Shown here: piece by piece, positions 39,909 through 61,340 of the stretch
Layout of the letters: every line of letters starts with the position of its first letter
How positions within the stretch are numbered: position 1 is the stretch's first letter
Source of the DNA: an uncultured Christensenella sp.
GTDB taxonomy: Bacteria > Bacillota > Clostridia > Christensenellales > UBA1242
Length of the DNA stretch: 64,000 nucleotides
Direction: 5' to 3'
NCBI GenBank assembly: GCA_910584295.1
Contig: CAJTYR010000005.1
Span: 24,904-88,903, forward strand
Notes under the pieces: generated by a model
Databases searched by the model: none
Told to the model about the DNA's origin: nothing
What the model saw: the letters and a program-made list of their open reading frames with translations, nothing else
Program-made: the position numbers and the translations under genes

Positions 39909-40063
39909 ATTTTGCATGGCTTCATTTTAGCATTTTGCTTTCTCTATGTCAAATTGATAATAATTTATTATATAAATCAATTATATATTTGCAACAAAAG
40001 GGGTTGTTTGCTTGATTTTTTTGTGTTTTAAGTTTAAAATAAAGTTGATTAGGAGTTTTGTTT

Positions 40064-43196: not shown

Positions 43197-43904
43197 TTAC
43201 AAATGATTTTTCTTATAATCATTCACTAATATATTTTCCGCAACTTTGCTCACCTTTGCCTGCCTATAAAGACCTTCCAAGCTTTTATTCCAAAATGGAA
43301 AGACTAAGAATGTCAATGAGAACAAAATTGTGCCTAAAAATACTGTCACATGAAATTGTAGAGAAAGTGAAAAGATTTCTTTTAAAAGTAAACTTATCAA
43401 AAAACAAATTATGGACAAAGTCGTAAAAAGAAACAGGCCGAAAATCCAAATTGAAAGTATCTTTAATTTTTCACCTTTCGTAAGCTCTCTGCTCAACAAT
43501 AAAACCCCTTTAAAGTCCAGATCTCTACACTCAGCCAAAATGTGTCCAACAAATGAAAGTGAGAAAAATGAAAATAACGATGTCAGCAATTTAACACAAT
43601 AAATGCATAAACACCTTCCATATCTCCTCGCAGAATAGAAAATTTTCTTAATGCCAAAAGTTTTTCTCTCTTCCCTTGCAAGAAGGCAAGCTTTTTCAAT
43701 TGTAAAAATATATGGCAAGAGGAAAATCGGCATAAAAAACCCGAATGGCACAATACATCCCAACATCACAACAAAAATAATTAAAGAAAAAATAAGGCAA
43801 TCTTCATACCAATACCAGTTTCTTTTAAAACAATTGGTGAAAGTTTCTCTTATCACTTTTGCATCAAACAAAAACATGAAAAAATTATTGCTTTCTTCAA
43901 CCAT
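43197..43904 (-). CDS. Polytopic membrane protein, function unknown
   Basis: Several hydrophobic helices (e.g. LIFSLIIFVVMLGCIVPFGFFMPIFLLPYIF). The track start 43940 lies inside the terminator hairpin, so I use an internal Met. The exact start is uncertain. Confidence 0.5.
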   Translation of the reverse strand: MVEESNNFFMFLFDAKVIRETFTNCFKRNWYWYEDCLIFSLIIFVVMLGCIVPFGFFMPIFLLPYIFTIEKACLLAREERKTFGIKKIFYSARRYGRCLCIYCVKLLTSLFSFFSLSFVGHILAECRDLDFKGVLLLSRELTKGEKLKILSIWIFGLFLFTTLSIICFLISLLLKEIFSLSLQFHVTVFLGTILFSLTFLVFPFWNKSLEGLYRQAKVSKVAENILVNDYKKNHL

Positions 43905-43920
43905 TTTATTCAATAAAAAG

Positions 43921-43948
43921 AAAAAACAGTGAATTACCACTGTTTTTT
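43921..43948. terminator. Bidirectional Rho-independent terminator
   Basis: AACAGTG-AATTAC-CACTGTT (43925..43944) flanked by AAAA and TTTT. Confidence 0.7.
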
Positions 43949-44155: not shown

Positions 44156-45604
44156 CTAGAAAATTGGCGAAAATAATCTGAAAATTGATTGTAAAAATTT
44201 AGTCAACCATCTCTTCTTTTTGAAAAAGAGAACATCTGCATAAATTGAATTTTCAATATCTTTTGCGAAATAGCGTTTATATTCTTCAGTAATTTGCTCT
44301 GAATACATCAAAACCGTATCCTCAAAATTGAGATTAAAAGAACGATTATCAAAATTGCAAGTTCCAATTGAAAGTTTATTATCATCAACAATCAAAGCCT
44401 TGCTGTGAAGAAAGCCATTATAAATATAAACATCTGCACCAAACTGAACAATATCCTTAAGGTATGAAAGTGTCACCAAGTAGACTGTTATATGGTCTGC
44501 TTTTTTAGGCACCATAATTTTGACTTTAACTCCGCTCATAAGTGCAATTCTAAGAGCTTCCATAAGTCCGTCGTCAGGCACAAAATAAGGTGTTTGGATG
44601 ATAATCTCTTTTTTTGCACTCATAATCAATTTGAGATATGCCTCTTTGATTTTTTTTATTTGTTCGTTTGGACCTGAAGTCAAGACTTGCAAGCACACAT
44701 CTCCCTCTTTTTGGGGAGTTGGAAAGAGCCCCTGTGCAATGTACGTATTTGGTGATGTTTTTTCTTTTTTGATATATCTCCAATCATTGAGGAAAATGTT
44801 TTGCAAGGCACTCGCACCAACACCTGTCACTCTGATATGGGTGTCTCGCCAAGGTGAAAGTCTTTTCTTATGTCCCATGTGATCTTCACGGATGTTGATT
44901 CCTCCAGTATAGGCGATATGACCATCAATAACAACAATTTTTCTGTGGTTTCGATAGTTCATTTTAAGATTGATCATTCTTATTCCCAAGAAAGGGGGAA
45001 AGAACTCCCCTACTTTTCCGCCAGCTTTTTTAAGTTTTCGGAAAAATCTTCTCGGTGCTTTCAAGCATCCAATTGAATCAAATATGAGTTGAACACGAAC
45101 TCCCTCTTTCGCTTTTTTAATCAAAGCGTTCATAATACTCTTGCCGACTTTGTCATCCGCAAAAATATAGTATTCGATGTTGATTGAGCTTTGTGCATTT
45201 TCAATGTCTTGAAGAAGAGATTTTATTTTGTCTTCACCATTTGTAAATATCTTTACATCATTTGCAGGACAAAGGACACTTCCAAAGTTGTAACATAGAT
45301 TCATTATTTCTCTGTCTTCAGCCCTCAAAGTTTTGGAATTTTCTTCAGAGGAGAAATAATTTTTAAGTTCCTCATCATATTCATTTTCATACAATTCAAA
45401 CTTTGAAATCAATCTTCTCACTCTGATAAAAAGTCCACTTCCAAAAATAAGATAAATCACAAAACCAAGTCCCGGCAAGAGAGAAACGACCGTCAACCAG
45501 CTTATTACGCTGGTGAGTTTTCGTCTCTCAACAAAAATCATTGAAACCATAACTAAGGAGTTTAAGGTTATATAGGTGACAAACACCCAAAACCAAGCGT
45601 TCAT
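44156..45604 (-). CDS. cls: Cardiolipin synthase (two HKD motifs)
   Basis: Two N-terminal TM helices, HRKIVVIDG...GG.N (first HKD) and HSKALIVDD (second HKD). 482 aa. Confidence 0.9.
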   Translation of the reverse strand: MNAWFWVFVTYITLNSLVMVSMIFVERRKLTSVISWLTVVSLLPGLGFVIYLIFGSGLFIRVRRLISKFELYENEYDEELKNYFSSEENSKTLRAEDREIMNLCYNFGSVLCPANDVKIFTNGEDKIKSLLQDIENAQSSINIEYYIFADDKVGKSIMNALIKKAKEGVRVQLIFDSIGCLKAPRRFFRKLKKAGGKVGEFFPPFLGIRMINLKMNYRNHRKIVVIDGHIAYTGGINIREDHMGHKKRLSPWRDTHIRVTGVGASALQNIFLNDWRYIKKEKTSPNTYIAQGLFPTPQKEGDVCLQVLTSGPNEQIKKIKEAYLKLIMSAKKEIIIQTPYFVPDDGLMEALRIALMSGVKVKIMVPKKADHITVYLVTLSYLKDIVQFGADVYIYNGFLHSKALIVDDNKLSIGTCNFDNRSFNLNFEDTVLMYSEQITEEYKRYFAKDIENSIYADVLFFKKKRWLTKFLQSIFRLFSPIF

Positions 45605-45635: not shown

Positions 45636-48600
45636 TTAGGTTAGATGTGTGAAAGTGATATTAACCAAATAATATTCTGAATGTTGTGTTGTCACTTGAT
45701 CTTCACCATTTCCCGTGCTTGTTGTGTATGTTGCTTGAACAATATAAGTTGCGTTGATGTTTCCACTTTCAAGTGCTGCAAGAGAAATGGTTGAAACAGG
45801 CACAGCTCTTCCATTTTCGTTCAATTGGAAGTAAGTTAATGTTGCATTGTCAGTTACGCCAAATCCATCTGCTTGCATCTTTTTAATCACAGTCGCATTT
45901 GCTTGGTTTAAGCTGTAATTTGTGTTTGGAGCTGTTGCAATTGTGACATTGGTTGAATCTTTATAAACATAATATGTGACATAATATCTTACAAAGTATT
46001 TTTGAGCACTATCACCCAAAGTATAAGTCACAAGATAGTTTTTGCCATCAATCCTGAATTCATTTTCATTTGCTGAAGCAGTCTCTTCTTCCAAAATGCC
46101 ATTTGCACCAATAAGTTTGACGTCAGTCACTTTTGCTTTTTTCTCTGCCAAATCTTTTTCAACTTGTTCTTTAAGTGCGTCTGCAAGTTTTGTTCCTGCC
46201 TCAACAAAGATTGTTGAATTGGTTGGAGAGCTTGAAGCAGTAAACTTATAATTCACGGTCAATCTGAAATACTCTCCTTCTGGATCTCTGACAATATAGT
46301 TTCCAACAGCTTCATGATGTGCAGCGTATGTAAAGTTTTCAGTTGAAATCTCAACAATTTCTGCGTCCTTGTTTGTGTGATCGGTTCCAGATTCAAACTT
46401 ACTATCGGTCACTTTATAGAATCTGTATCCCGTGCCAGTATATAGATTCGAAAGGTTGTATGGTGCGTTTTGATTAAGCACAACATTTTTCACTTCATGC
46501 TGTTTGCTCACCACATAGAATGTAAAACTATAAACTCTCGTCACACCTTCACTATCTTTTGCAACATAGCTTTCAGTATATATGCCTGTTGTCTCAGGAG
46601 CAACATAAACTGTTTTGTCACCAATCTTGTCTGTGACAAGCTTAATGTTTCCGTCAAGATCAAGACTATACCAATCGCCTGCTCCCAAACTATAAGTTGA
46701 AGGTGAATATTCATAATAAGTCTTTGTCTTATTTGCAAAGTCAGGTGTGTCCGCTTTGACATATTTGCCATCAACAAGCTCAAAGTAATCCTTTCCTGTC
46801 ACAACCACTGTGTCTTTTGTCTTGTCGTAAGTGCTTGCATCAAGCAAGATGACCTTGTCTGTTCTGTTGAGAACATTGTAAGCCATAACACTCAACTTGA
46901 CTATGGCCTTATTAATAGTTGAGCCAGACTTAGCATCTCTATAAGTAACCAACAATTTAAGTTCATGAGTTCCTTCTTTTTCAATCTTATATGAGTCAAG
47001 GTTGTTGTAATAAACAATGTTTGCCTCACTGTTGCCAATCTTATCTTCAACAATGTGATAAGTTACATTGTGCAAGTCTTTGCTCTCTTCTTCAAAAATC
47101 TCTTTGAAATTGAGAGTGTCTCCAACTTCACATGCAATTGTCTTTGATGATTTTGTTTCATTTGAGTCAAAGATATAATTTGTGATTTCATCATATTTGA
47201 AATTGCCTTCTACATAGTCAAACAATCGATAGCCTTGCTCAACTGAAATGACACCAGAATCAAGAACAGCGTTTTCACTGCCAGTATATATATTCCCATA
47301 TCTTCTGTCAGAAATTTCGTTCCAATCACTTCTGCTACTCAACATGATTCTGAATGTTCCCAATTTAAGCTTTTTAGAAGGAACATCAAAGTATCCATTT
47401 CTGCCAGAAACTTTCATATAAACATTAACTGTGATTGTGCTTTCTTGAAGATTGAAGTTTCTCTCGGTGATGATGTTGCCGTATTCATCAATGAATGCTC
47501 CACCGGCACCACCTTCAATCTCCTTGCTGACTTCAAAGACATATTTGTATGCTGGAGTTTTATCCCCACCTTTGAAATTGCTAACCGCTGTTCCGACATT
47601 TGCATAATTTTTAAGTTTAAGATTTTCTCCCCAAACTTCTCTTGGAATAATGTAATAGAAATCAGATGTTTCCCCTGCGGTTTTTGCAACCTTAAGATAG
47701 TTCTCAAGTTTAAACTCAATATTTCCGCTTGTGTCAATGCTATCAGATTCCAACTTTTCAAATTCTGGATATACTTGGAATGTTTTTCTCATCTGATAGA
47801 ACATGTTTTTGTTGCTGTATTGTTTATCAAATTCATAATAAGCTTTGGTCACATCGCTTAAGTCTGGATTGTTAACCTCAACATACTTTCCACCGCTATA
47901 TTCGTAATATTTCTTTCCTTCTTGTATACTTGTGTCTTTTGTTTTAAAATAGATTCCATAAGATTCAGATGTGGAAATTTTTTCGCCGCCTTGATACAAG
48001 AAATAAAGCGTTTCAGTCTTACCTGGGAACTCACTTGCATCATTGATGTGAAGGGTGATTCCTTCAAAATATTGAGAAATTGTCTTCGCGTTATAAATTG
48101 TTGACTTTTCAACTTCAAAGTAAGAGCTTAACTTGTCTGCTTCAGGTTTTTCAACTTTTTTATAGATTCCATCTGCAAAAGTGAAATACTCTTTTTCTTT
48201 AACAAGTTCGGTGTCAGCAGTCCTCTTATAAGCGAGTTCATAGAGATCCTTTCTTACATAATACTCTTTTCCAGATTCAAATTTATCTGCAAGAGCAAAG
48301 AAATCGCCTGTCTTTGTATAGTATGTCTTTCCAGAAGTTTCATCATACTTTTCTTGAGAATAGAGAGCTGCTGCTTCTACATAGTATGTCGTTGCACCAG
48401 AAGCTGGATTTGCAACAGGTACATAATATCCAGTCTCCGAAAGTTCATAGAAAGTCACACCTTCTGGCACATTATTCAAGCTTGCAACATTTGAATAAAG
48501 CGCTGATCCAAGCTTTGAAACATATGAATCGCCTGACTTAATATAATAGGTCTTGTTTGAAAGAACTGAAATATCTGATGTTTCAATATATTTTGAAACA

Positions 48601-51600
48601 GGATCTTTGCTTTCGTCAACTGCGATTTCTTCTCCATTGTAAACAAACTCAATCTTATCTTTTGTCGTTTGTTTAACAACCGTAACATAGAAATCGTTTA
48701 TATCTTTGTGTTCGCTATAGAAATTGTAATCCAAGTTTTGGATATTTGAAGAAATAGGAACATATTCCGTTCTTGCAAATGAAGAACTGTTTTGCAAAAC
48801 AATAAGACCTTCAGAAGGAACCTCTTTGAACTCCTTATCTGAAATTGCAAATGTGATTGACTCCCCAGCTTCAAGAATGACTTCAAGTGTGTCATTATAA
48901 ACCTTTCTGTTTTTCGAATCTTCGTTTGATATCACCTTAACTGGAGTATTGTCAACAACTTTGTCAGGGAAAGTAATTTCTTTTGTCAATCTTGAAATTG
49001 TGACATACTGACTTAATACACAAGTGTTAACATCTTCCTCCAAATTGTTGCTATCACCTTCCACCAATGTGATTTCCATTCTGACATTTGGAAGAGATTC
49101 GTTGATTCCAAAGTAGATTGAGTCAATCACAGGAACAATGAAGTCGAATGCATCTTGTTGATAGCCAATACCATCAATTGGAGTTGGGTCACCACTTACA
49201 GCCTTTCTTACACGCTCGTAAACTCTTGCTTCGCTATCTTTCAAATACAATTGATTGTCTTTTACTACAATTTCTGAATAATCAAGTTCTGTTTTATCTT
49301 CTTTAAAGTACTTTTTACCCAAGATAATACTGCTGTCGTTTGTTTGCTCATAAACATATTCGTAAGCTTTGCCATCAAAGAATTTGTAATCAGCACTTGT
49401 GACAAGCGGAATATTCCCTTCGGCAGTTGCAGTTCCTCTTTTTGCGGAGCCAAGAAGGGTTTCTCCGAGATAGAATTCTATTCCTTCAACTTTTATATCA
49501 TTAACTCTTGAAACATATCCACTTGTCTTATCCTTGCCCGTTGCAACATCAATGTTGAGTGCATTTATTGTGTCATCGCCTGTTGATTTAAATGCAAAAG
49601 CAGAAATTCCACGAAGAATAACTTTTGCTTTATCATCATTCATTTTATCGTCGACTTGGAGTGATGGCTCATCATATCCGCTTGAAGTTGAATATACTTG
49701 TTCAATTTTCTTATCTTTCCAAGTTGATCCATCTTTATCACCAGCTTGTTTGTAGGTTATGTTTCTGAATGTACCAAACTCACCATTATCAAACACAACA
49801 TAAACAGAAATTGGAGCATTTGCCAGATCATTTTGTGTCATTTTTTGCTTTTTCATTGGATTTGGGTTGGTTGTTGACGGAGGTGTGTCTTTATCAGGTA
49901 CATCAATTTCTGCTGAGACTCCCTTAACGCCATTCAGCCACCAATTTTTATATTCTTCTTCGTGGTTGTTTTCATCCCAAATATCAACTTCTTTTCCTGA
50001 AGTCTTAATCTCTTTGATAACTGTGCCGAAACCATTGTTTGCTTGTGCAGAAAGAATGACTTTTGTTATATTGTCTGGAAGATCTGAAATTCTATTTGCG
50101 TATGAATTGGTTGTTCCCGCTTTCAATTTATAATCCAAAGTGCCAAGAAGTTGTCTTCTTTCAGTTGAACCTTCTGATTCAGCCACCACAATTGTTGGTC
50201 TAACATTCATGAATTGAGAGCCAACAACAACAGCCTGACCTTCTGCCAAAACATTTCCTTCGCTTGAAATTTTTGCAATTTGTGGATTTTCCGTTGCTGT
50301 GAGAGTGAAATAGAATCTGATCTTGAAGCCAAAATCATTTTTTGCATCAATATAGAATTTTCTTGTTCCCAACTTAAGTTCTTTGATTAAAACTTTTTCC
50401 CATTGAGGCACACCAGAAGTTGGAGAATCCTTTACAATCTTAAGACCTGTACCAATATCAAAATTGTTATATTCTGTTTTTGGTCCATCTGGTTTATAGG
50501 TGTATGTGAAAGTGTTTGCATTATTCAAAGTTTTGTTGTTATACAAATATGCAGTTATTGCTGAATTTGAACTTCCTGCCGCACTTATATCCCAAAGAGA
50601 AAACTCATTTGCAAAATCTGCTTCTGAACCGTCATCATTTTCAATTGCAAAAGCAGACTCTTGATTGCTCGCATAAGATTGACCATTAATGACAATGTTT
50701 GCACTTGCTGTGGTCGCTGTGCTTCCTTTTCTGGTGAGGAAATTAACGCTTGAATTTGGAAGAACTTTGAAAAGTAAATTGTGAGCAACACTGATTGGTG
50801 TTGTATTCTTTCCAAATGAAACAGTGTATGTGATTCTCATCATGACATGGTTTCCGTCGTTGTTTGCACCACGAGCGTGAATTGAATAGTCAACAACTTT
50901 TCCATTGACAATAACAGCGGAGTGATCGAGATAGTTGAGGTCAATGCTTCCATAATCATCATTGAGATTTTCCAATGCTCTCACACGAGGATTTAATCCT
51001 GTGCCATAAACAACATCTTTCTCCAAATCTTTGCCTGCTGTTGATTTCAACTTATTATGAATTTCATAAGCCGCTTTTTGGAGATCATCTGCTCCAGATG
51101 CATTTGTGATATGCAAGTCGCTAAAACCATAAATCTTAAGGTCAACGCTTCCGCCTGAATTCAAAAGATTGTCTGTGCCTGCATTTCCAGAATTGCTGTA
51201 TTTATTTCCAGTTCTTGTGTTGTAGATTCCAAAATCAACTTCATCAAAGAGAGATGCATATACACCAGCATTAATTTCTCTCATTGAATAAGTTGTTCCG
51301 CTGTCTGCATTTTGAGAAACTCCAAATTCAATTTCAAGATAGAGGCTGTATTGTGAATTGGTGACAATAGTTTCATCTCCCACTTGAACACCAATTTGAT
51401 ATGTTCTTGTTTTATGATAATCTTCAGTCTTCAACTCAACTTCATCAGCTTTTTTAAAGCCATGCAAAGATTTTTTCACAAGTTCTTCAACACACTCTTT
51501 CCAAGTGCTGCCAGAGAGTTCGATTGCTTTATCAGTTCCACTTACCTTCTCAAGATTTCCAATTGCAAAATTCTTTGCAAAACATGAATACACATACCAT

Positions 51601-54600
51601 GTTTCACCATTTATACGAATCTCTGTATGCATAGTTCCTGTAGGAGCTGTTTCTCCATCACCAACGACAACAGCCCTACTATCTTTTGAAAGGAGAACAA
51701 CACCTGAATAAAGATTTTCACTGGAAGCACTTTCAATATTCTTTACTCCACTGAAATATCCAACATAAGCATCACCTTTGTTTACCTTTACAAATCTCTC
51801 AAGACTTCCATCAGGTTTTTTGAAAGTTGCGACCTCTCCGGTTTCATTCATCAAACTTGCTGAAACTGGAGCGAACATTTCTTTCGTTTCCAATGCCTCT
51901 ACAGGACTAAACGTTGGTCTATTATAATCGCCATCAACCTTCCAATTAAGTTCTGTTCCAAGTTTGACATAATTATTTGCGTCAAGCTTGATTTCCTTTC
52001 CATCATAATAACTTACAACAACTCTGCTTGTGAGATTTGGTGAAATATTGAAGATTTCACTTTCATCAGCAATTTTGTATGCATTATCATTTGCTTGAGC
52101 CCCTTCAAGAGTTCTGAAAGTTGCAGTATAATCAAAGTCTATGAAACTCTTTCCAAGATCAACATTTGAAGCCATTCCACGATTTGTAACAGTGATTGGA
52201 ATTATTTTGTTTTCTGCTGGATTGGTTCTGTTTGTCAATCTGACATAATAAGTCGCACCAGTAACAGCAGAATTTTTAAACACAAAATTGAGCAATCTGT
52301 TTTGAGTAAAGAGAGTTTGTTCGTCACTCAACGCCAAATCTTCTGCAAAAACAGATTCTCTGTTGAGATTGTAGTTTGGAGTGTTTGTTGTCACTTTGAC
52401 AATTGCATCATTGATGATAACAACGGTGTATTGTGTCAAAACTTCATTAACTTTCACATCGAAAGTCACACTTCCAGTTTCTCCGGTGTTCAAAAGAGTG
52501 AATGTCAAATCAACCTTTCCGTCTTCTGAGTCTTTCAAAACAACCTTATCAGAAGAGTCTCCTGTGATTGATTTTATTGTATCATCTGCTTGTGCAAAAC
52601 TGATTTCAACATTTGTCACACTTGAGACTGAAACTTGCCAACTCTTTTTGATGTTTGAAACAATTTCTCCTTCAACTGTTTTGGCAACATTCACAACTCC
52701 AATTCTTGGATTGCTTGAGAATGTTGCTGGTGAATTGAAGAAGTCTTCAAAGGTCTTCGATTTTCTTTGTCCTTCAGCGTCTGTTTTTAATGTAGCTGAA
52801 ATATATTCTGTTTTTGATGGGTTTTCCTCATCTCCGTCTGGAGTTGGATAATTTGCATTAACATCAACATTTCTGTCGGCTGTAAATCTGTATTTCACTT
52901 CAAATCTTGCGATTTCTTTAATTTTTCCATCTTTTCTAAATTGTGAAATAACATTTAAAGTTTTGATTATTCCTTGGCTTTCGCTTCCAACATTATCTGG
53001 AGAGATTGTCACTCTTGGAGTCTTATCTTCTTCAGTGGCAAGGTCTGCAACTTCATAGCCATCTCCAGAAACAAATCTATACATTGTGTTTGGAGTTGAG
53101 ATAAGTTCAACTGTGCTTGGCAATGTAGTTGAAGTGAAATCTTTTGGTGTGATGACAGAATTAACATCTCCCTCATCAATCTTTACATCAAATTCGACTT
53201 GCCCATATCTCTTGTTCATATCTTGAACTTGTCTTGGTGTTTTTTCACTGAATGATGCAGAAACATTAAATGATTCAGAGAATGTGAACACTGAAACATT
53301 TGCCAAATCGTCCTTTGGAGCAGATTCGATCATAATATCAAAATCAAGTTTGATGTCTGAAACAAGTGGAGCAATTTCCAACTTGATTGCATTATAGTTT
53401 AGAACCTCATCAACCAAAGAAATTTCTCCGGTCAAGGAAACAACATCAGAAATCTTCAGTGAAACACACTCATAGTAAGTAGTTTTCTCGTCAAATTTTG
53501 CTTCATCTTCAAACTCTACCTTTGTATACTTCCCATATGCAAGAATATAGTAATCCTCACCATCAATTGGAGTTTTGTCATCTGTAACAAAGTAATAAGT
53601 TCTGTATGGGTCAAAGCCATTCTTAAGTTTCATTGAAACTTTTGTAATTTGTCTGCTATCTCCCTTTGTTGTTGGACCAGAGAAAAGTTCACTGAAATCA
53701 TATTGTTTTCCGCTTGCAAGATCTCTCTTTTCAACATTCCATTCAAAATAGCTTTCCGCTTTCAGTGCAACTTTAATAATCACACCTTCGCTTGCATAGA
53801 AACCGAGTTCAAACTCACTGTTCTTTGAGATGTTTGCTTTTGCTTTCAAAGCAACTGTCTTATATGGCGTTCTATTCATTTCATAATATGTTACACCACT
53901 TTCAAATTTCGCACCAACTGTGTATCTTGGCAAATATTCTCCAGCAACTTCAACAAAATATGTTTTTCCAGAAACAAGATCTGTGTCCGCCGTCCTTTCG
54001 AATGTTTTCTCATAATAAGAAGTTATATTTTCAACAACAGGATTTTCAACCAATTTATAAACCCCGCCATCAAGACTGAAATATGCCTTTCCGTCAACAA
54101 TCGCTTCATCCGCAGTCTTCACATATTTTCTTTCAAAATAATCTCCGATTTCGGATGTAACTGCCAAAGGAACTTCAACATAGTCAGATCCTTCCAAAGT
54201 ATAATATTTTTTATTTCTCTTTGTAACTTCGTCAGAAGTGATTGAATATTCCTGTCTACCTTCTGCCAAGAAATCAAATTGAATATCTTCAAGGCGAATG
54301 CCATACTTAACATATCCAGCAACGCCAGTTATTGGAAGAGATTCAAACTCTCCCCAAACATATCCATCATCCCCCAATTCAAGCTCGTTAAATTCAGAAC
54401 CTTCATAAGTGATGAATGTCTTGGTTGCATCATCCACAACACGATTAACAACACTTGCATAAACCCAATCGGTTTTGTCCACAAGAATGACATCTTCGGA
54501 AAGCGTGATATCTTGCAACCCTTCAACTTTCAAAGTTGTTCCTTCTGCAAGCCAAACCTTCTTGAACATCAAAGCATCCAAGAGGTCTAGTTTGTTTCCC

Positions 54601-57600
54601 TTGATGTATGAACCAAAATTGATCATATCCCCAGTTACATTGCCGTCAATTGGCTGAATGATTGGAATGTATGTCTGCTCATTGCTTCCTGCAATAATTG
54701 TGTCGACATATAGCCTTTCATTGTTTCCATCTTGATCAACTTTATTTGAGTCTTTAACTTGATCACGATAGAGAGAAACTTCAAAATCTCTCGCTTGATT
54801 TATCTTGATTGTGTACCTCATTGAAGAACCAACAACTTCCAAATCGTCTACAGTCCAATATTTTTCAATGACAATTGTGTTGACTGATCCAACTGCAGAT
54901 GAATTTCTGTAGGCAATATTAAGCAACGATCCGTCAAACGAAACATTGACATTGGTTGAGGCTTCAACCAATCTGTATGCCCACTTAATTGCGCCACTTG
55001 GCTTTTCAATCCATTTGATTTCATCAAAACGATATCCAGAGTAACGTCCACTGTTTGATGAATTAAACTTTTCTTCCAAGTCAATTGAATAGGTCAATGT
55101 TTCAGCATTATATGCACTTGAAGTGGTGTCAAGGAATTCTCCATAGACAGCACCCTCCTCTTCTGAAAAATCGTTGTATGGATAGTTAACTTTTCCAATT
55201 TCAAAATTTGGCGCAACTTTGATGCGATAGAGCCAACTATAAGTTGATACATTGACACCAACAGTGCTTAATGTAAATTTCAAAACAATATAGCCTGAAA
55301 TTTCTTTTTCCATGCTGTTGATCTTAAGCATGCCATTTTCGTATGAAGCAAGATTTTCAACATATCCATCCACACCACTCGTAAGGATTTCCACTGTTGG
55401 AATTCTTGTTCCTGCTTGTGAAATATCATAATAGAAACCTGCTTCTGGAGCATTTTTCTCATAGTAAGAACCAATCTTTGCAACATCTGGGGTCTCAACT
55501 ACTACAAATTGAGTACCAGTTCCAACTGTCTTTTGTTCGTAATATGTTTTACCATCAACAAGTGCGGTATCTTTTGTTGGCGCAAATTCTTGACTTATGT
55601 CATGCAAAATCTTGTAAACTTGTCCAGCTTTCAGTGTTTCATAAATACCATTTTCCTCAAGGTCTGAAACATTTGCTGAAATCAATTTATCAAAATCAAT
55701 CGCAGTATAAACTTTTTCATAATATGTTGACAAATCTGCTGCAACAGGATTTTCAACAACGAGGAATTTTCCTTCAGTCTCAACATAGTAGGTTTTGTCT
55801 TCAACAATTGCCGTATCATTTGTTTTCTCAAATGATTCTTTTTGGAATGTGTTGAATGAATTGTTATTGTTTGTGTAATATACAAAGTTTTCTCCAAGAT
55901 TTGAAACAGTCACACCTAAATTGAGAGTAATCTCAAGTTTATTCTTTGCATAATCTTCAACTGTCTTGCCCACAATCACGGCATTTTCATGATCAATAAA
56001 GGCTGGGGTTCTGACATTGATACCAGTGCCACTTGCATTCTTGGTGATGTTTTTGCTTCCTTCAACAACACTCTTAACATTAAACAGATAATTCTTTTTG
56101 CCATCAGCACCGGCAACATAAGCAATCTCATAACTTGCACCAGCACGCATCAACAAACGAAGTTCACCTTGATATGTGATTACGCTTGCATCAGGGAAAA
56201 CCTCTTGAACAAGTTCTTTAACACTTGCCTTGTTATAGCAAACTGAGAAACTTATTTTGATGTGATTTTTGTCATTATACTTGACAATCTTTGTGCTGTT
56301 GTTTCCATCAATCTTAACTTTAACCGCATCCAAAAGGGAATCTTGAGATGCATAGATTGAGAATGATTGTTCGTAAGCTTTGAGAACATCCACAGATTTT
56401 CCTGTCACAAACAAGAAGTTTCCTGCTGATTCTGAAGCTCCACTTTGAATTGTAATAAATCCATCAGTATCAACATTTTGATAAACCAATGTCTTTGCAT
56501 CCAAAGTTACATTTCCAATAGAAACAGATTCTTTTATTCCGTTTTTGTAAGAAGTCGCTTTATAAACTGAATAATAATCATTGATTTTGCTCTCTTTAAT
56601 ATTATTCAAATCAAGCATTGGATTTTCTTCAAGATTTTCAACTTTTTCTTCAATCAAGATGTTTGGATTTACATAAAGATCAACATCTGTATAGAAAGCA
56701 TAATCTGATCTTACTCCATAATAAAGCCTGATTCTTATCGTTGTGTATTGTCTTACACTTGCAATTTTAAGTCTAACCTTTCCGTCAACAACAGTGTCAA
56801 GACTTGCAATTCCGCTGTTTTCATAGAACACGCCATTGATGTTTGAACTTAAGTCAATGCCCTTTCCAACAAAGGCATCAGCCCAAGAAAAGTCTTCACT
56901 CTTAAATTGAAGATATTCATCCAAATCATAGATTTCATCGGCAAACACAGCCTCTGCCGATCCACTGGTTGGTTTTGCCAAATAGTCAGAATAACTGTCG
57001 TAGTAATTTCCGAAACTTCTGCTGATTTCTATTGTTGAAGAAAGCACAAGATTCAAAGTTACACTATACAAATTGTTGTTGCTATTTATCTTGAATTTGA
57101 GCGTATTCTCAACTTTGAATGGAGCGTTGATCTTCAAGGTTGTTATTGCGATATTTTCGTAAGCAGTGATGTTGTCTTGCGCAGAAGAACTATCTTCTCC
57201 GTTGATTTGCAACATCTTCTTAAGAGAAGTTCCATTCACTCCGCCTTGGAAACCTTGAAGCCAAGTTCCGTCAAACATAACTGTATAATCAGAGTTTGGA
57301 GCGGTTGAATTTGTTGTGTATATTCTGAACAAATCGCTCAATGTGATTGTCGTGTTTGATTTAACATCTTTCTTGACAGTCACTTCAGTCACACCTTTTG
57401 AAGCAGAAACAAACCTATCATCCTCTTTATAATCAACATCAGTGCTGCTGTCATATTTAACATAATCCAAACCTTCTGTGTTGACAACAAACGAGAAGAG
57501 GTCAGATTGAAGTTCCACTCCTGAAAGAGTACCATCTTCATTGACAGCCATAACCCTTTCGTTTCCATTTTTTCTGTCAACAACACAAATCTTAAGTTGT

Positions 57601-60329
57601 GTTTCCACCACTTTTCCGCTTGTTGAAGCAAAGTCATTGATTTTTACTGGAATTCCATTTTCACTTTCAAACTTCAAAATAAAGTTGGAATCATTTCTAA
57701 TTTCATTAAACTGAACGCTGTAAACTCCGTTCTGAGGTTTGATATCTGCACCAAATTGGTCCTTCATAACAAATGAAAGTTGTCCATTGAGTTCCGCAAT
57801 TGTTTCAGTATAACTTGCCTGTGTAAGATTTGTGTTTCCCCAATTGATACGAAGACCATCAGCTCCCGCAGAAATATTAACTTCAATTGGACTTGATGTG
57901 TTGATAGTGTTGTTGTGTCCGCTGCCAAACTCCAAAGTCTTTGGTTGTTGGAAATAAATATAGAAATAATCAGGTTGTCCATCAACAATTGGCTCATCCA
58001 AACCAACAAGTTTTGATCGAGTTTCCTTTCCATCATCATAAACAAGTTTTAAAGAGATATCTCTTCCTTGGTCAACTGCAGTTTTTCCTGCAGAGAAAAG
58101 TTCTTCATTGATTGAAACAAACCCCTCAAAAGTTGCGACATTTGCAGTTCTGTTGTCAACAAGTTCGCTTAAGCTTGACAATTCCATATATTTATCGGAG
58201 TATTCGTTTCCATATTGATCACAAACAGCAACTTTTAAAGATTTGTCGTTGAAAGAAGAGTTGAGCTTTTCAACATCTCTGACAATGTCTTCGCTCTTAA
58301 GTTGCAAAGTGAATTTAATTCTTTCAATTGTGTCACCTTTTTCATCTTTGTTGATTGCAGGAAGATAAACATGTCCACCTTTTTCAACAAGAGAATCCTC
58401 TCCAAAAAAACTGAAAGTTGGGGTCATATTTGAAATTGAAAGAGTGCTGTCAACATTGATAACTTTTGCTCCACTGAAGCAAACAAGTTGATATCTTGTC
58501 TTTTCCAAATCTTCGTATTGAATTTCACCATTGACATTTGTTCGAACTAAAGCAGCAATAACAACCACCGAGCCAGTATAACTTTTCTTGACTGTCAGAA
58601 TGTTTGTTGCTGGCAATTCATAGAATGTGTAAGAATCCTTAACTGGGATTCCACTGATGTTGTGAGAACTTATGTTTTTACCCTTATAGTCTTTTGAATA
58701 TTCCTTGCCTTCTCCACAGTTGAATATTTCTTCAACAGGCACCTGTCCATCTCTTGTGTTGTCATAAAGGAAATAAACAACTTTTGAATAAACACTATTT
58801 CCAATGTCGGCAGAAAGAGGAAGGTCAGCAGAGATTGGCTTTCCAGAATCATCATAATTGATAACAAGGTCAAGTTTTTCAGTTGTTAAAGAAACAGAGT
58901 TGTTTCCTTCTTTAACAATAACATCAATAGCTTGTTCTTCCACATCCTTAAAGAAAGTTTTCCACAAACCATTTTCGTCTTTAAAGAAGAAGTTGATTCC
59001 CAATTTAAAAGGAGTATTCTCAACAGTGTCAGAAGAGAATGTCCAACGATAGTTTCCATAATCCCCAGAAGAACTTGTGTTTGGCAAGATGTAATATTCA
59101 ACATCTTCTCCCGCTGCGGAATAGTCAAAATCTTTATCAAAAGTCTGCTCTTCAATAACAACATCGTCTCCAGTTGTCGTCACCTTCATCACTCTTCCAC
59201 CAATAATGGAGAAGTTTGCTTTTCCCTTTGGGACTTTGATTCCAACTCTGCCAAGCAAGATTTGTGCAGGTTTTTTATAGCTGTCATAGATGGAAATTCC
59301 CAAACTCATGTCATTTGGTCTGTCTGTTGAATTTGCTGAAAGCGTAAATGCTTTGTCTGCATAAACTTCAGCAATAGATAAACTTGGTTCAATTCTCACT
59401 TCATCAACTTCAATGTCAAGCACTTTGATGAAAGTTCTTGTTGAAATCACCATTGCTTCATTTGCAGGATCTTCCATAAATTTGATGATCTCGTCCGTTG
59501 TTGCGTTTGGATTTTGATCAAAATAAATCTTTTCATAATAAGAATTTTTGAAAGTGTATGCATAGACAGTTGAATATTTGCTTCCGCTCACTTCTTCTGC
59601 TGTAAATTCTCCTGTTGCTTCGTTATAGGTTATATAATCTGCACCACTGCTTCCCAAAACATTGAAAAAGACTCTTTTATTTTTCTCTTTGTTGTTGAAA
59701 ACATATTGACTGTTTTTTGGGTTGAAAATTGCATTCATTTTAAATCTTGAGCCAACAACCACATTTTGAACTTCGTCAATGCGAGCGATTTGTCCATCAC
59801 CAACAACAAGTTCTATGCTTGAAACTGGTGTGTCGACTGCAACTACAGCAGTTTTCGTTGGAAGAAGGATGTTTTGAGATTTTGCTGTTATGTGAGAAAA
59901 ACCATTGACACTTCCCACAATTTGATTGGATCTGCGAACGAGTTCAACTTTGAAAGGTTTGTTAAGTTCCACTTCTGCTGGAATTGTAATTGCACCATCT
60001 GTGATAAAACCGTTTCTTGTTGTTCCGTTTCGAAGTGAAAGTTCAACTTTGGTTTCTGTCACATCTTTTGTTGTGCAAGAGATGGTAAGGTAAGAATCGT
60101 CAGAGAGAAAATACCAATTGTTTCCATTGATGTTGTCTGCGTATCCTTGTCCATCCACAACTTGTGTGAACGCCATATCTTTTGGGTCAACAACCTTTTC
60201 ATTGAATGTCCCCATAAAAAACAAGACCAAAGTGGTCACACCGGCAACGCCGAAGAGACCTGCAATGACCAACAAAATCACTTTCCAGAGAGCAAGAGGA
60301 GCTCTCGCTTTAAACTTGAAACCTTTCAT
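45636..60329 (-). CDS. Giant (4897 aa) N-terminally membrane-anchored extracellular repeat protein
   Basis: A single uninterrupted ORF. I start it at ATG 60329 (MKGFKFKARAPLALWKVILLVIAGLFGVAGVTTLVLFF, AAGGA RBS). There is no enzymatic motif and no LPXTG. More than a dozen copies of a ~30-aa unit of the form (T/D)AD..V.GK.YY.....G.Y..V..P.......YYE are present. Confidence 0.85.
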   Translation of the reverse strand: MKGFKFKARAPLALWKVILLVIAGLFGVAGVTTLVLFFMGTFNEKVVDPKDMAFTQVVDGQGYADNINGNNWYFLSDDSYLTISCTTKDVTETKVELSLRNGTTRNGFITDGAITIPAEVELNKPFKVELVRRSNQIVGSVNGFSHITAKSQNILLPTKTAVVAVDTPVSSIELVVGDGQIARIDEVQNVVVGSRFKMNAIFNPKNSQYVFNNKEKNKRVFFNVLGSSGADYITYNEATGEFTAEEVSGSKYSTVYAYTFKNSYYEKIYFDQNPNATTDEIIKFMEDPANEAMVISTRTFIKVLDIEVDEVRIEPSLSIAEVYADKAFTLSANSTDRPNDMSLGISIYDSYKKPAQILLGRVGIKVPKGKANFSIIGGRVMKVTTTGDDVVIEEQTFDKDFDYSAAGEDVEYYILPNTSSSGDYGNYRWTFSSDTVENTPFKLGINFFFKDENGLWKTFFKDVEEQAIDVIVKEGNNSVSLTTEKLDLVINYDDSGKPISADLPLSADIGNSVYSKVVYFLYDNTRDGQVPVEEIFNCGEGKEYSKDYKGKNISSHNISGIPVKDSYTFYELPATNILTVKKSYTGSVVVIAALVRTNVNGEIQYEDLEKTRYQLVCFSGAKVINVDSTLSISNMTPTFSFFGEDSLVEKGGHVYLPAINKDEKGDTIERIKFTLQLKSEDIVRDVEKLNSSFNDKSLKVAVCDQYGNEYSDKYMELSSLSELVDNRTANVATFEGFVSINEELFSAGKTAVDQGRDISLKLVYDDGKETRSKLVGLDEPIVDGQPDYFYIYFQQPKTLEFGSGHNNTINTSSPIEVNISAGADGLRINWGNTNLTQASYTETIAELNGQLSFVMKDQFGADIKPQNGVYSVQFNEIRNDSNFILKFESENGIPVKINDFASTSGKVVETQLKICVVDRKNGNERVMAVNEDGTLSGVELQSDLFSFVVNTEGLDYVKYDSSTDVDYKEDDRFVSASKGVTEVTVKKDVKSNTTITLSDLFRIYTTNSTAPNSDYTVMFDGTWLQGFQGGVNGTSLKKMLQINGEDSSSAQDNITAYENIAITTLKINAPFKVENTLKFKINSNNNLYSVTLNLVLSSTIEISRSFGNYYDSYSDYLAKPTSGSAEAVFADEIYDLDEYLQFKSEDFSWADAFVGKGIDLSSNINGVFYENSGIASLDTVVDGKVRLKIASVRQYTTIRIRLYYGVRSDYAFYTDVDLYVNPNILIEEKVENLEENPMLDLNNIKESKINDYYSVYKATSYKNGIKESVSIGNVTLDAKTLVYQNVDTDGFITIQSGASESAGNFLFVTGKSVDVLKAYEQSFSIYASQDSLLDAVKVKIDGNNSTKIVKYNDKNHIKISFSVCYNKASVKELVQEVFPDASVITYQGELRLLMRAGASYEIAYVAGADGKKNYLFNVKSVVEGSKNITKNASGTGINVRTPAFIDHENAVIVGKTVEDYAKNKLEITLNLGVTVSNLGENFVYYTNNNNSFNTFQKESFEKTNDTAIVEDKTYYVETEGKFLVVENPVAADLSTYYEKVYTAIDFDKLISANVSDLEENGIYETLKAGQVYKILHDISQEFAPTKDTALVDGKTYYEQKTVGTGTQFVVVETPDVAKIGSYYEKNAPEAGFYYDISQAGTRIPTVEILTSGVDGYVENLASYENGMLKINSMEKEISGYIVLKFTLSTVGVNVSTYSWLYRIKVAPNFEIGKVNYPYNDFSEEEGAVYGEFLDTTSSAYNAETLTYSIDLEEKFNSSNSGRYSGYRFDEIKWIEKPSGAIKWAYRLVEASTNVNVSFDGSLLNIAYRNSSAVGSVNTIVIEKYWTVDDLEVVGSSMRYTIKINQARDFEVSLYRDQVKDSNKVDQDGNNERLYVDTIIAGSNEQTYIPIIQPIDGNVTGDMINFGSYIKGNKLDLLDALMFKKVWLAEGTTLKVEGLQDITLSEDVILVDKTDWVYASVVNRVVDDATKTFITYEGSEFNELELGDDGYVWGEFESLPITGVAGYVKYGIRLEDIQFDFLAEGRQEYSITSDEVTKRNKKYYTLEGSDYVEVPLAVTSEIGDYFERKYVKTADEAIVDGKAYFSLDGGVYKLVENPVVENITSYYEKTFERTADTDLVSGKTYFVEVAGEYLPRYTVGAKFESGVTYYEMNRTPYKTVALKAKANISKNSEFELGFYASEGVIIKVALKAESYFEWNVEKRDLASGKQYDFSELFSGPTTKGDSRQITKVSMKLKNGFDPYRTYYFVTDDKTPIDGEDYYILAYGKYTKVEFEDEAKFDEKTTYYECVSLKISDVVSLTGEISLVDEVLNYNAIKLEIAPLVSDIKLDFDIMIESAPKDDLANVSVFTFSESFNVSASFSEKTPRQVQDMNKRYGQVEFDVKIDEGDVNSVITPKDFTSTTLPSTVELISTPNTMYRFVSGDGYEVADLATEEDKTPRVTISPDNVGSESQGIIKTLNVISQFRKDGKIKEIARFEVKYRFTADRNVDVNANYPTPDGDEENPSKTEYISATLKTDAEGQRKSKTFEDFFNSPATFSSNPRIGVVNVAKTVEGEIVSNIKKSWQVSVSSVTNVEISFAQADDTIKSITGDSSDKVVLKDSEDGKVDLTFTLLNTGETGSVTFDVKVNEVLTQYTVVIINDAIVKVTTNTPNYNLNRESVFAEDLALSDEQTLFTQNRLLNFVFKNSAVTGATYYVRLTNRTNPAENKIIPITVTNRGMASNVDLGKSFIDFDYTATFRTLEGAQANDNAYKIADESEIFNISPNLTSRVVVSYYDGKEIKLDANNYVKLGTELNWKVDGDYNRPTFSPVEALETKEMFAPVSASLMNETGEVATFKKPDGSLERFVKVNKGDAYVGYFSGVKNIESASSENLYSGVVLLSKDSRAVVVGDGETAPTGTMHTEIRINGETWYVYSCFAKNFAIGNLEKVSGTDKAIELSGSTWKECVEELVKKSLHGFKKADEVELKTEDYHKTRTYQIGVQVGDETIVTNSQYSLYLEIEFGVSQNADSGTTYSMREINAGVYASLFDEVDFGIYNTRTGNKYSNSGNAGTDNLLNSGGSVDLKIYGFSDLHITNASGADDLQKAAYEIHNKLKSTAGKDLEKDVVYGTGLNPRVRALENLNDDYGSIDLNYLDHSAVIVNGKVVDYSIHARGANNDGNHVMMRITYTVSFGKNTTPISVAHNLLFKVLPNSSVNFLTRKGSTATTASANIVINGQSYASNQESAFAIENDDGSEADFANEFSLWDISAAGSSNSAITAYLYNNKTLNNANTFTYTYKPDGPKTEYNNFDIGTGLKIVKDSPTSGVPQWEKVLIKELKLGTRKFYIDAKNDFGFKIRFYFTLTATENPQIAKISSEGNVLAEGQAVVVGSQFMNVRPTIVVAESEGSTERRQLLGTLDYKLKAGTTNSYANRISDLPDNITKVILSAQANNGFGTVIKEIKTSGKEVDIWDENNHEEEYKNWWLNGVKGVSAEIDVPDKDTPPSTTNPNPMKKQKMTQNDLANAPISVYVVFDNGEFGTFRNITYKQAGDKDGSTWKDKKIEQVYSTSSGYDEPSLQVDDKMNDDKAKVILRGISAFAFKSTGDDTINALNIDVATGKDKTSGYVSRVNDIKVEGIEFYLGETLLGSAKRGTATAEGNIPLVTSADYKFFDGKAYEYVYEQTNDSSIILGKKYFKEDKTELDYSEIVVKDNQLYLKDSEARVYERVRKAVSGDPTPIDGIGYQQDAFDFIVPVIDSIYFGINESLPNVRMEITLVEGDSNNLEEDVNTCVLSQYVTISRLTKEITFPDKVVDNTPVKVISNEDSKNRKVYNDTLEVILEAGESITFAISDKEFKEVPSEGLIVLQNSSSFARTEYVPISSNIQNLDYNFYSEHKDINDFYVTVVKQTTKDKIEFVYNGEEIAVDESKDPVSKYIETSDISVLSNKTYYIKSGDSYVSKLGSALYSNVASLNNVPEGVTFYELSETGYYVPVANPASGATTYYVEAAALYSQEKYDETSGKTYYTKTGDFFALADKFESGKEYYVRKDLYELAYKRTADTELVKEKEYFTFADGIYKKVEKPEADKLSSYFEVEKSTIYNAKTISQYFEGITLHINDASEFPGKTETLYFLYQGGEKISTSESYGIYFKTKDTSIQEGKKYYEYSGGKYVEVNNPDLSDVTKAYYEFDKQYSNKNMFYQMRKTFQVYPEFEKLESDSIDTSGNIEFKLENYLKVAKTAGETSDFYYIIPREVWGENLKLKNYANVGTAVSNFKGGDKTPAYKYVFEVSKEIEGGAGGAFIDEYGNIITERNFNLQESTITVNVYMKVSGRNGYFDVPSKKLKLGTFRIMLSSRSDWNEISDRRYGNIYTGSENAVLDSGVISVEQGYRLFDYVEGNFKYDEITNYIFDSNETKSSKTIACEVGDTLNFKEIFEEESKDLHNVTYHIVEDKIGNSEANIVYYNNLDSYKIEKEGTHELKLLVTYRDAKSGSTINKAIVKLSVMAYNVLNRTDKVILLDASTYDKTKDTVVVTGKDYFELVDGKYVKADTPDFANKTKTYYEYSPSTYSLGAGDWYSLDLDGNIKLVTDKIGDKTVYVAPETTGIYTESYVAKDSEGVTRVYSFTFYVVSKQHEVKNVVLNQNAPYNLSNLYTGTGYRFYKVTDSKFESGTDHTNKDAEIVEISTENFTYAAHHEAVGNYIVRDPEGEYFRLTVNYKFTASSSPTNSTIFVEAGTKLADALKEQVEKDLAEKKAKVTDVKLIGANGILEEETASANENEFRIDGKNYLVTYTLGDSAQKYFVRYYVTYYVYKDSTNVTIATAPNTNYSLNQANATVIKKMQADGFGVTDNATLTYFQLNENGRAVPVSTISLAALESGNINATYIVQATYTTSTGNGEDQVTTQHSEYYLVNITFTHLT

Positions 60330-60525
60330 CGATAGAATCCTTAAAACAAATTCGTCAAACAAGCAAACAAACAGCAACTATTTGAGCAATTTTTATTTAA
60401 AATTATTGTTTACATATTTCGACAAAATAATTATACAATTTTAAGACTTATTTTCGCAAGTGTTTATCGAGATTTTTTATATAAAATAAAATATATATAA
60501 ATATGTGCCAAAGAAGGCGTTTAAG

Positions 60526-60560: not shown

Positions 60561-61340
60561 ATGAACACAAATTTCGAAATTTATAACTATCTAAACCTTA
60601 TCAACCGTCGCGTTGCAAAGGCTTTTCGAAGCACAGGAAGAAGCCCTCTACCTGCAAACTTCAAAATCACAACAGAAACAATCAAGGAAAGGCTGTATTT
60701 AAATCAGATGCAGTCAAGCATTTCTTATCCTGAGTTTTTGTTTGAAAACAACAGAAATGTAAAAAAACGTTTTAAGGCTTCCGTAAAGCAGATTAAACAA
60801 CTTCAAGCAATGCTCAAAGACCCAGAATACGCAAAAACTATGTCACCTGCCTTTCTGGAAAAATTTTCAACCTATCTCAAGCTGCGCCTTTTTGTGACGA
60901 ACTGCATACTAAAAGAATTTAAGCACTTTTATTTCAATGAGTGTGACGCTTATGAAGAAATTTGTGCAATTGACACAATTTTCTTTGAACTTTTGGACGA
61001 CACCTTTGAACCTGACTTTGATGTCAGATTGCATGTGGGTAATCTTGAAAATAAATACAAAGTTTTCTATCAAGAAAGAGTAAGCCGACTTGAAGAAAAA
61101 GTGTCTGAAAAAACAAAAAAGAAAAGAGCTGAAAAAGCAAAACTTCAACAAGAAGCGGTTCAACTCAATCAAAAAGCTTTGAATGAAAATATTCAGTCCA
61201 ACACAAAAACAGAAAAGAAAGAAGCGAAAGAAATTAAAGCCGGAATAAGAAACGAAAAGAAAGAAGCAAAAATTAAAAAATCGCAAGAAATTCACACATT
61301 TAAACAAGAAAAAGAACAAAAAATTAATGAAAGAAAATAA
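60561..61340 (+). CDS. Hypothetical protein with a Lys/Glu-rich C-terminal tail
   Basis: 259-aa ORF. The last ~90 aa are low-complexity K/E-rich. No recognised motif. Confidence 0.55.
   Translation: MNTNFEIYNYLNLINRRVAKAFRSTGRSPLPANFKITTETIKERLYLNQMQSSISYPEFLFENNRNVKKRFKASVKQIKQLQAMLKDPEYAKTMSPAFLEKFSTYLKLRLFVTNCILKEFKHFYFNECDAYEEICAIDTIFFELLDDTFEPDFDVRLHVGNLENKYKVFYQERVSRLEEKVSEKTKKKRAEKAKLQQEAVQLNQKALNENIQSNTKTEKKEAKEIKAGIRNEKKEAKIKKSQEIHTFKQEKEQKINERK

Follow-up and report, generated by a model that had tools for sequence, protein, structure and literature searches.

A 42-residue unit common to a giant, N-terminally anchored protein of uncultured gut Clostridia and to phage structural proteins

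What kind of protein needs 4897 residues but shows no recognizable catalytic domain, and what are the short, tyrosine-rich units scattered along it? The question is raised by one open reading frame (ORF) in a stretch of 64,000 nucleotides from an uncultured Christensenella sp. (assembly GCA_910584295.1, contig CAJTYR010000005.1, positions 24,904 to 88,903). This whole stretch is referred to here as the window, and positions are counted from its first letter. An initial annotation, made from the sequence alone, had drawn attention to a recurring and possibly undescribed motif in the product of this ORF. Here, we describe the motif as a unit of about 42 amino acids (aa), which recurs in phage head, tail and fibre proteins and in other bacterial proteins, and which, like the family of giant proteins in which it was noticed, appears to be uncatalogued, both as a sequence family and as a predicted fold. 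The gene concerned is:

45636..60329, minus strand: giant ORF, 4897 aa (ATG at 60329, stop codon at 45636-45638, from the ORF list)

The unit and its copies in the giant protein

All of the motif instances first reported exist at the places given for them, but the unit to which they belong is about 42 aa long rather than about 30, because an invariant T-x-D stands 7-9 residues ahead of the GK-x-YY core. Alignment of the instances gives the pattern T-x-D-x6-(G)K-x-Y-Y-x6-Y-x2-V-x2-P-x4-I-x2-Y-Y-E, in which the positions defining the unit family are T3, D5, K12, Y14, Y15, Y22, V25, P28, I/L33, Y36, Y37 and E38. Nine complete units in the window fit this definition, and about four further copies are decayed (one at aa 3661, the rest within aa 3915-4033). 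The scores listed below are against a hidden Markov model (HMM) built from units of unrelated proteins alone, without the window units or their orthologues:

55704..55829, minus strand: unit 1, aa 1501-1542, 50.0 bits
55446..55583, minus strand: unit 2, aa 1583-1628, 46.4 bits
54120..54245, minus strand: unit 3, aa 2029-2070, first of three tandem units, 30.9 bits
53997..54122, minus strand: unit 4, aa 2070-2111, the unit for which a structure was predicted, 53.9 bits
53868..53999, minus strand: unit 5, aa 2111-2154, 25.5 bits
53457..53591, minus strand: unit 6, aa 2247-2291, 22.5 bits
49251..49349, minus strand: decayed unit, aa 3661-3693, with the N-terminal half alone recognizable, 8.3 bits
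48231..48587, minus strand: cluster of decayed or partial units, aa 3915-4033, 18.7, 1.7 and 1.3 bits
48102..48227, minus strand: unit 7, aa 4035-4076, 37.6 bits
47820..47948, minus strand: unit 8, aa 4128-4170, 43.0 bits
46698..46826, minus strand: unit 9, aa 4502-4544, 34.9 bits

The nine complete units thus score 22-54 bits, and in 200 composition-preserving shuffles of the giant protein the best score was 5.1 bits, no domain reaching 10 bits. When 200-aa fragments of the protein were compared with the whole by BLAST, internal repeats were found at the unit positions only. Formal repeat detection, which the initial annotation had proposed as the test of its motif, therefore confirmed the unit (by HMM and by BLAST) and disclosed no other sequence repeat. 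The unit is present in no other ORF of the window. Recent intragenic duplication was considered as a source of the copies and rejected, since Tandem Repeats Finder detected no DNA-level tandem repeat in the giant gene, and since identity between window units (at most 51%) is no higher than their identity to units of unrelated proteins (up to 66%). Across unrelated host proteins the 12 defining positions show 82-100% identity (a figure inflated by the selection of units with a profile), and the column frequencies reveal no conserved Trp at any position.

Is the unit already known under another name? Isolated units and unit clusters found no Pfam family at E ≤ 10 beyond sub-threshold noise, the unit profile found no match among PDB sequences (best E-value 1.4), and 77 other carriers of the unit, scanned singly, had no Pfam or NCBIfam family over the motif (the Pfam-A copy was that of 2025, and NCBIfam that of 2026). 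The suspicion that the motif was undescribed was therefore borne out to this extent: it lacks an entry in Pfam-A, NCBIfam or PDB, and does not map cleanly to any Pfam repeat family.

Occurrence in phages and other proteins

When 1.84 billion representative proteins were searched exhaustively with HMMER, 631 carried the unit at E ≤ 1e-3, of which 112 reached E ≤ 1e-10 and four E ≤ 1e-30. Among them are phage tail-fibre-like proteins with 2-10 units, Dit proteins, one Gp13-like major capsid protein, type IV pilins (recognized by their pilin N-termini), dockerin-bearing proteins of about 2700 aa and other giant proteins of up to 7285 aa. The PHROGs assignments of carriers include major head proteins (phrog_422, 247 and 544), major tail proteins (phrog_2645 and 885), tail fibres and Dit, and ten IMG/VR representatives fell into three PHROG families of major head proteins and two of major tail proteins. 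The carrier P0003, which has 10 units, is a prophage protein encoded between a tape-measure gene and genes for a holin, a GH25 lysin and an integrase. A cluster look-up of 20 carriers yielded hardly any names, among them a 'hypothetical protein' from a metagenome-assembled genome (MAG) of Oscillospiraceae.

The viral collection IMG/VR was searched with a degenerate in-frame DNA pattern representing the 42-aa register, which matched at least 114 contigs; a control pattern shifted 2 nt out of frame (62 Ns rather than 60) matched nothing in IMG/VR, in the window or in the related loci discussed below. Among the matches listed, 106 ORFs held an HMM-confirmed unit, and most of these (87 of the 106) were 300-430 aa long. 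Other routes to phage sequences were unproductive: neither three concatenated window units nor P0003 gave a tblastn match among GenBank phages, and a peptide-pattern search of IMG/VR with P0003 found nothing.

A separate set among the matches listed, eight of 115, lay in short ORFs of 36-82 aa without an HMM-confirmed unit (IMG/VR L028, L045, L047, L051, L053, L084, L107 and L111). Several of these carry a reverse-transcriptase-like motif, ..RIDIRKYFDSIDHE.., and the eight look like recurrent chance matches inside one repeated element.

The major head proteins give a direct view of how a unit sits in its host. In an alignment of IMG/VR proteins with those of two cultured phages (alignment A8, columns 255-315), the 42-aa unit of the metagenomic proteins occupies the place of a 10-aa loop in the 58% identical protein of Clostridioides difficile phage phiCD38-2 (L126), and in Fusobacterium phage phiPaco (L127) the same loop holds an unrelated insert of about 55 aa. 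On this alignment, an insertion hot spot lies in a surface loop of this family of major head proteins.

In tail-fibre proteins (P0003, aa 200-500, and IMG/VR L063) the unit appears to be split into halves, with several N-terminal halves in a row (Y-x-L-T-x-D-x5-G-K-x-Y-Y) and then several C-terminal halves in a row (Y-x-x-V-x-x-P-x4-I-x-x-Y-Y-E). Such halves may pair in a nested manner, or between chains, within a fibre.

Predicted fold of the unit and of its surroundings

A single unit (aa 2070-2111) was modelled with AlphaFold2 (AF2) from an alignment of 114 units, with a mean predicted local distance difference test score (pLDDT) of 96.3 and a predicted template modelling score of 0.73. In this model, DSSP assigns a bridge to residue 2, a hairpin to residues 15-18 and 21-24, a helix to residues 30-35 and a second bridge to residue 37. 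The fold is thus predicted, with high confidence, to consist of a strand, a beta-hairpin, a short helix and a strand. The motif had been called hairpin-like, and a hairpin is indeed part of the predicted fold, but a short helix and further strands belong to it too. In order along the domain, there would be a strand bearing T-x-D, the hairpin (GK-x-YY ... Y-x-x-V), the proline, the short helix and a closing strand bearing YYE. The two ends of the unit are probably adjacent, with the first strand pairing with the last, because there are isolated bridge residues at positions 2 and 37 and because units are inserted cleanly into loops. Adjacent ends would permit the domain to be spliced into linkers and surface loops with the host protein left undisturbed.

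With Foldseek, the single unit found no PDB fold at E ≤ 0.001. In BFVD it matched part of an uncultured-phage protein, A0A8S5RUA7_2 (TM-score 0.85, root-mean-square deviation 0.7 Å, 36% identity, probability 1.0, E 0.04), which is the same module and not a different, known fold.

A larger AF2 model, of aa 1575-2300 (726 aa, about 15% of the protein), was made from a seven-row family alignment and has a mean pLDDT of 56. Its usable confidence is limited to aa 1575-1845 and about aa 2242-2291. Units 2 and 6 show the same secondary-structure elements in it as in the single-unit model (pLDDT about 80-88), and the region following unit 2 is notable for its conservation across the family:

54795..55445, minus strand: all-beta scaffold domains, aa 1629-1845 (217 residues), AF2 pLDDT 80-90

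The best Foldseek matches of the 726-aa model in the PDB were to cadherin EC repeats (E about 1.5e-3, probability 0.9-0.99, with low TM-scores). These predictions weakly support a scaffold of beta-sandwich domains and, equally weakly, the Ig-like spacers proposed for this protein by the initial annotation, for which no Pfam Ig or cadherin match was found.

Gain and loss of units in the giant-protein family

Relatives of the giant protein were sought in a contig scan covering one genome per GTDB species, and through the HMMER search described above. The first gave nine loci with colinear relatives at 28-56% identity, all in gut MAGs (labelled Christensenella, Catabacter, Clostridia or Ca. Caccovivens), and the second gave seven more (P0001, P0008, P0011, P0059, P0067, P0089 and P0105). 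Together with the window ORF, these (L002-L010 and the seven P proteins) make up a family of colinear proteins at 25-59% identity, characterized by an N-terminus of the form M-K-K..L-W-K-V followed by a transmembrane helix, by similarity over about 4000 aa and by a site between orf259/ABC-F on one side and cls on the other. The giant ORF product is a clade-specific, fast-evolving, N-terminally anchored and beta-rich protein that has collected nine units.

Family alignments show the units as whole-unit insertions or deletions. Among 10 aligned members (the window protein included), units 1, 4 and 8 are confined to the window protein, and units 2, 3/5, 6, 7 and 9 are common to it and to the relatives at 50-59% identity, unit 6 being found also in the more distant L004 and L005; the relatives at 25-35% identity lack most units. 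Alignment occupancy falls in the bins containing units 1-5, 7 and 8 and in the region of decayed copies, and falls less at units 6 and 9, and other members of the family bear units at different sites. Units behave here as cassettes, which orthologous giant proteins gain and lose at a small number of linker hot spots.

One other region of low occupancy (0.33-0.62), at about aa 2800-2950 (window 51480-51930), has no unit and holds two of the 11 Cys residues of the protein; its appearance is that of an inserted stretch, some 150 aa in length, which most relatives lack.

The giant gene and its neighbourhood

The open frame would extend over 45636..60377 (minus strand) if counted from a TTG, and from the ATG at 60329 it gives the 4897 aa adopted here. 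Features at its 5' end are:

60338..60342, minus strand: Shine-Dalgarno sequence AAGGA, 8 nt from the ATG, read directly from the sequence
60430..60459, minus strand: promoter-like TTGCGA-18-TATAAT about 100 nt upstream of the ATG, a consensus match only
60210..60293, minus strand: N-terminal hydrophobic anchor, aa 13-40, LALWKVILLVIAGLFGVAGVTTLVLFFM, with K/R-rich residues ahead of it, conserved in all homologues

A 19-residue hydropathy scan of the whole protein has a single strong peak (aa 17-35, mean 2.58) and no second comparable one, whether at the C-terminus or elsewhere, so that scan and ORF list agree with the initial annotation of a 4897-aa protein having one N-terminal transmembrane helix. 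Its statement that there is no wall-sorting signal also holds: the C-terminus (...YYLVNITFTHLT) has no LPXTG, matches to LPxT[GAN] being internal only (aa 572 and aa 1998), and the protein falls outside the sortase-anchored class as defined by a C-terminal motif, a hydrophobic segment and a positively charged tail. Nor was any catalytic domain found, again as had been stated, in scans of the whole protein against Pfam-A, NCBIfam and PDB sequences, which returned nothing significant. The window sequence occurs in many mouse-gut metagenomes, and a protein identical to the giant ORF product is present on a Logan contig.

Immediately downstream of the giant gene lies cls, as had been noted, and both the gap and the two phospholipase D (PLD) domains of its product were verified. 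The genes close to the giant gene are:

44156..45604, minus strand: cls, cardiolipin synthase with two PLD domains, 31 nt downstream of the giant ORF
60561-61340, plus strand: orf259, divergent from the giant gene, no Pfam match, 41-72% identical across loci
43197-43940, minus strand: orf247, syntenic, no Pfam match
42607-43152, minus strand: orf181, syntenic, no Pfam match, 54-81% identical across loci

In seven of the nine related loci cls is syntenic, and the gene order kept across relatives is ABC-F, orf259, giant gene, cls, orf181 and a gene resembling those for type IV coupling proteins. No terminator-like site was found in the 31-nt gap between the giant gene and cls, and metatranscriptome contigs from four runs tile the giant gene at low depth, two of them crossing the junction with cls, which is suggestive, but not proof, of co-transcription. 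Identity across the loci is 91-97% for ABC-F and 65-85% for cls but only 25-59% for the giant protein, which makes this a core locus housing a fast-evolving protein. By the same measure orf259 is fast-evolving also.

Two further parts of the window deserve mention. A second gene for a coupling-protein-like product of type IV secretion systems (T4SS; TraG/VirD4 family), at 40058-42064 on the plus strand, has counterparts of 75-90% identity in seven related MAG loci. Because its place with respect to the giant locus is constant in all seven, it looks like part of the conserved neighbourhood and not of an integrative and conjugative element (ICE). The other part is an ICE-like block at 17360-39442, in which we recognize:

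17360-18550: MobL relaxase
18547-20715: T4SS coupling protein
20637-25160: 1507-aa surface protein
27616-30237: VirB4/TraG-type ATPase
32445-33584: BspA-type leucine-rich repeat protein
34801-35766: primase
35782-36888: C5 cytosine methylase
38165-39442: tyrosine integrase

A tie between the giant gene and this block was rejected, as relatives keep the giant locus independently of the block.

What might the unit do?

In the scheme that we propose, an N-terminal signal-anchor helix would hold the giant protein in the membrane with the remaining 4850 or so residues outside the cell, giving a very long, beta-rich cell-surface fibre. The protein belongs to the core genome of one clade of uncultured gut Clostridia, of which the window represents a mouse-gut member, and evolves fast there; the unit is a cassette, inserted into presumably exposed parts of virion proteins and of bacterial surface structures. 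We infer the outward topology of the protein, and with it the surface exposure of its units. The anatomical part of this scheme, that the unit is a real, autonomous cassette domain, uncatalogued and common to these bacteria and phages, we regard as highly probable. Taken as a whole (a surface fibre, rich in beta structure and quick to evolve, that bears copies of a promiscuous plug-in module with an accessory adhesive role), the scheme is the one that we favour on balance.

The role itself can be put forward much more tentatively. Ig-like domains on Hoc and on other phage structural proteins are reported to bind bacterial surfaces and mucin glycans (PMC10385173). Because the distribution of the unit mirrors that of these accessory domains, the function that we prefer for it, by analogy, is an accessory one: weak, multivalent binding that would make its carriers adhere to glycans, whether of mucus or of bacterial surfaces. 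Two marks of accessory decorations of this class, variable presence and a location in loops, are seen both in the major head proteins and in the giant family. The most specific version, in which gut Clostridia and their phages swap a minimal plug-in adhesion domain of an uncatalogued fold family into any exposed loop (of capsid, tail tube, fibre, Dit, pilus or giant surface fibre), where it would bind a common glycan of the gut or of cell surfaces, is doubtful.

Several points count against this scheme. Adhesion is argued by analogy with the Ig-like domains. The adjacency of the two ends is a deduction, since DSSP gives the bridge residues 2 and 37 without named partners; the tandem units (aa 2029-2154) and most of the 726-aa model have pLDDT below 50; and the metatranscriptome evidence consists of low-depth contigs, for which DNA carry-over is possible. 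A word-index protein search was near-empty: the unit profile drew a single 46-aa fragment, aa 1-500 drew two fragments and aa 1480-2300 drew nothing (the search seems poor at retrieving these giant proteins). Finally, and as the main ground for caution over adhesion, nearly all of the conserved positions (five Tyr, Val, Pro, Ile, T, D, K and E) could be structural, and elsewhere in the unit the sequence varies freely, even from one orthologous copy to another.

Because of these last two properties, an inert structural element would fit equally well: a compact, protease-resistant spacer or brace for linkers and surface loops, with no ligand. Conserved residues that are mainly aromatic or hydrophobic, with a few polar ones, would suit such a brace, as would the location of units at inter-domain linkers and the toleration of decayed copies. 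It would not be expected, however, that a mere brace should keep the 12 defining positions so nearly constant (even discounting the effect of profile selection) in hosts as different as capsid, tail tube, fibre, pilin and giant proteins, nor that it should be acquired repeatedly in exposed loops of unrelated major head families whose cultured relatives assemble without it. We rank this role second, after adhesion, and consider it rather unlikely.

Virion surfaces and a surface protein of the host that evolves fast bear one and the same module, which also brings to mind contacts of like with like, in which unit-bearing virions would dock on the units of the host giant protein, or the host copies would act as decoys; the edge strands of the small predicted sheet could perhaps pair in this way. 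However, no unit-bearing phage has been linked to this host clade, and the unit occurs also in pilins and dockerin proteins, where the logic fails, so that we think such contacts very improbable.

Could the unit instead be a divergent form of something familiar? The initial annotation had compared it to choline-binding or cell-wall-binding repeats (CW_binding_1 type), which would tether the giant protein to teichoic acid. A GK-x-YY-like core and a richness in aromatic residues are common to both, and modules found in phage and host alike are typical of cell-wall-binding repeats. The likeness is superficial: CW_binding_1 (PF01473) was matched neither by the whole protein at E ≤ 1 nor by isolated units or clusters at E ≤ 10; hhalign gave a probability of 0.6% between the 114-unit profile and a choline-binding profile (of LytA-type repeats); and, against 20-aa hairpins, the unit has 42 aa, a predicted helix and closing strands, no conserved Trp, and a mostly dispersed or single occurrence, with one run of three tandem units and no long solenoid arrays. 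Homology was accordingly rejected, and we give this identity hardly any credence. A divergent WW domain, which would bind proline-rich peptides, deserves as little. Its attraction is that GKTYY is present in WW scaffolds in the literature and that a G-[KR]-x-Y-Y core stands 13 residues ahead of a proline in Pin1 and FBP28, the Y15-to-P28 spacing of the unit equalling, by our count, that of Y24 to P37 in Pin1. However, every defining feature fails, so that WW homology is effectively refuted: there is no Pfam match to PF00397, hhalign gave 7% over 11 columns only, both signature Trp residues are missing, no WW structure is among the Foldseek matches in the PDB (which holds many), and the predicted helix and N-terminal strand are absent from WW domains. 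As for a chance or compositional effect in a giant protein rich in Tyr (6.25%), Lys and Glu, with abundant Thr and Val, the possibility is negligible, being refuted by the shuffles (n = 200), none of which exceeded 5.1 bits where the nine units score 22-54, by 631 independent carrier proteins and by an AF2 pLDDT of 96.

Significance

A strongly conserved motif, present in hundreds of protein clusters and on more than 100 viral contigs, has remained outside Pfam, NCBIfam and PDB. Once it is defined, part of the sequence could be annotated in many hypothetical proteins, both in the capsids, tails and fibres of gut phages and among giant bacterial surface proteins. It extends the range of promiscuous phage accessory domains from Ig folds of about 100 aa to a 42-aa fold able to occupy loops. 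Being of a size accessible to peptide synthesis, the unit is a cheap and concrete object for tests of adhesion by gut phages and bacteria, and the giant protein for its part defines an unnamed family of fast-evolving putative surface fibres, conserved beside cls in a poorly known clade of gut Clostridia. If the unit is indeed a plug-in adhesion domain, its presence would single out proteins and virions that adhere to one substrate, and, being small and having termini that are probably adjacent, it would be a natural scaffold for display and engineering.

Comparison with known systems

Neither giant surface fibres nor promiscuous decoration domains are new as kinds of structure; it is this domain and this protein family that appear to be uncatalogued. 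For the unit, the closest counterparts are the Ig-like additions on phage structural proteins (Hoc, the C-terminal domain of lambda gpV, and Big_2, I-set and FN3 domains; Fraser et al. 2006, as cited in PMC10385173). Like the unit, they are small extracellular modules that fold autonomously and are attached promiscuously to major capsid, major tail and fibre proteins; close relatives assemble without them, and bacterial surface proteins carry them too. A weak adhesive role has been proposed for the Ig-like domains (PMC10385173). The unit, however, has 42 aa against about 90-100 (less than half), a predicted hairpin, helix and closing strands instead of a beta-sandwich, no sequence or fold match to Ig families, and a place in internal loops as well as at termini.

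An aromatic G-K-x-Y-Y-like core is also found in choline-binding (CW_binding_1) and clostridial glucan-binding (CROP-type) repeats, which likewise occur on Gram-positive surface proteins and phage proteins and may be in tandem. From these, the unit is set apart by the want of a profile match and of Trp, by twice the length, by a helix in the predicted fold and by its mostly single or dispersed occurrence.

The giant protein invites comparison with the giant surface fibres and adhesins of Gram-positive and Gram-negative bacteria that are built of tandem beta-sandwich domains, such as Ebh, SiiE, LapA and those of the Bap type. In common with them it has several thousand residues, a beta-rich character, a single anchor at one end, no enzymatic domain and rapid divergence between close relatives. 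Unlike them, it has no detectable sequence repeat besides the 42-aa unit and no Ig, cadherin or Big domain recognized by Pfam; its anchor is an N-terminal membrane helix, in place of an LPXTG motif, a C-terminal transmembrane segment or a type I secretion signal; and its locus is conserved with cls.

Finally, major capsid proteins of the HK97 fold can carry insertion domains, for example the I-domain of P22, in which a folded element occupies a surface loop. The unit is likewise an extra folded element within a surface loop of a major head protein, but it is far smaller, and the same kind of element is found in at least three major head families and in non-capsid and cellular proteins as well.

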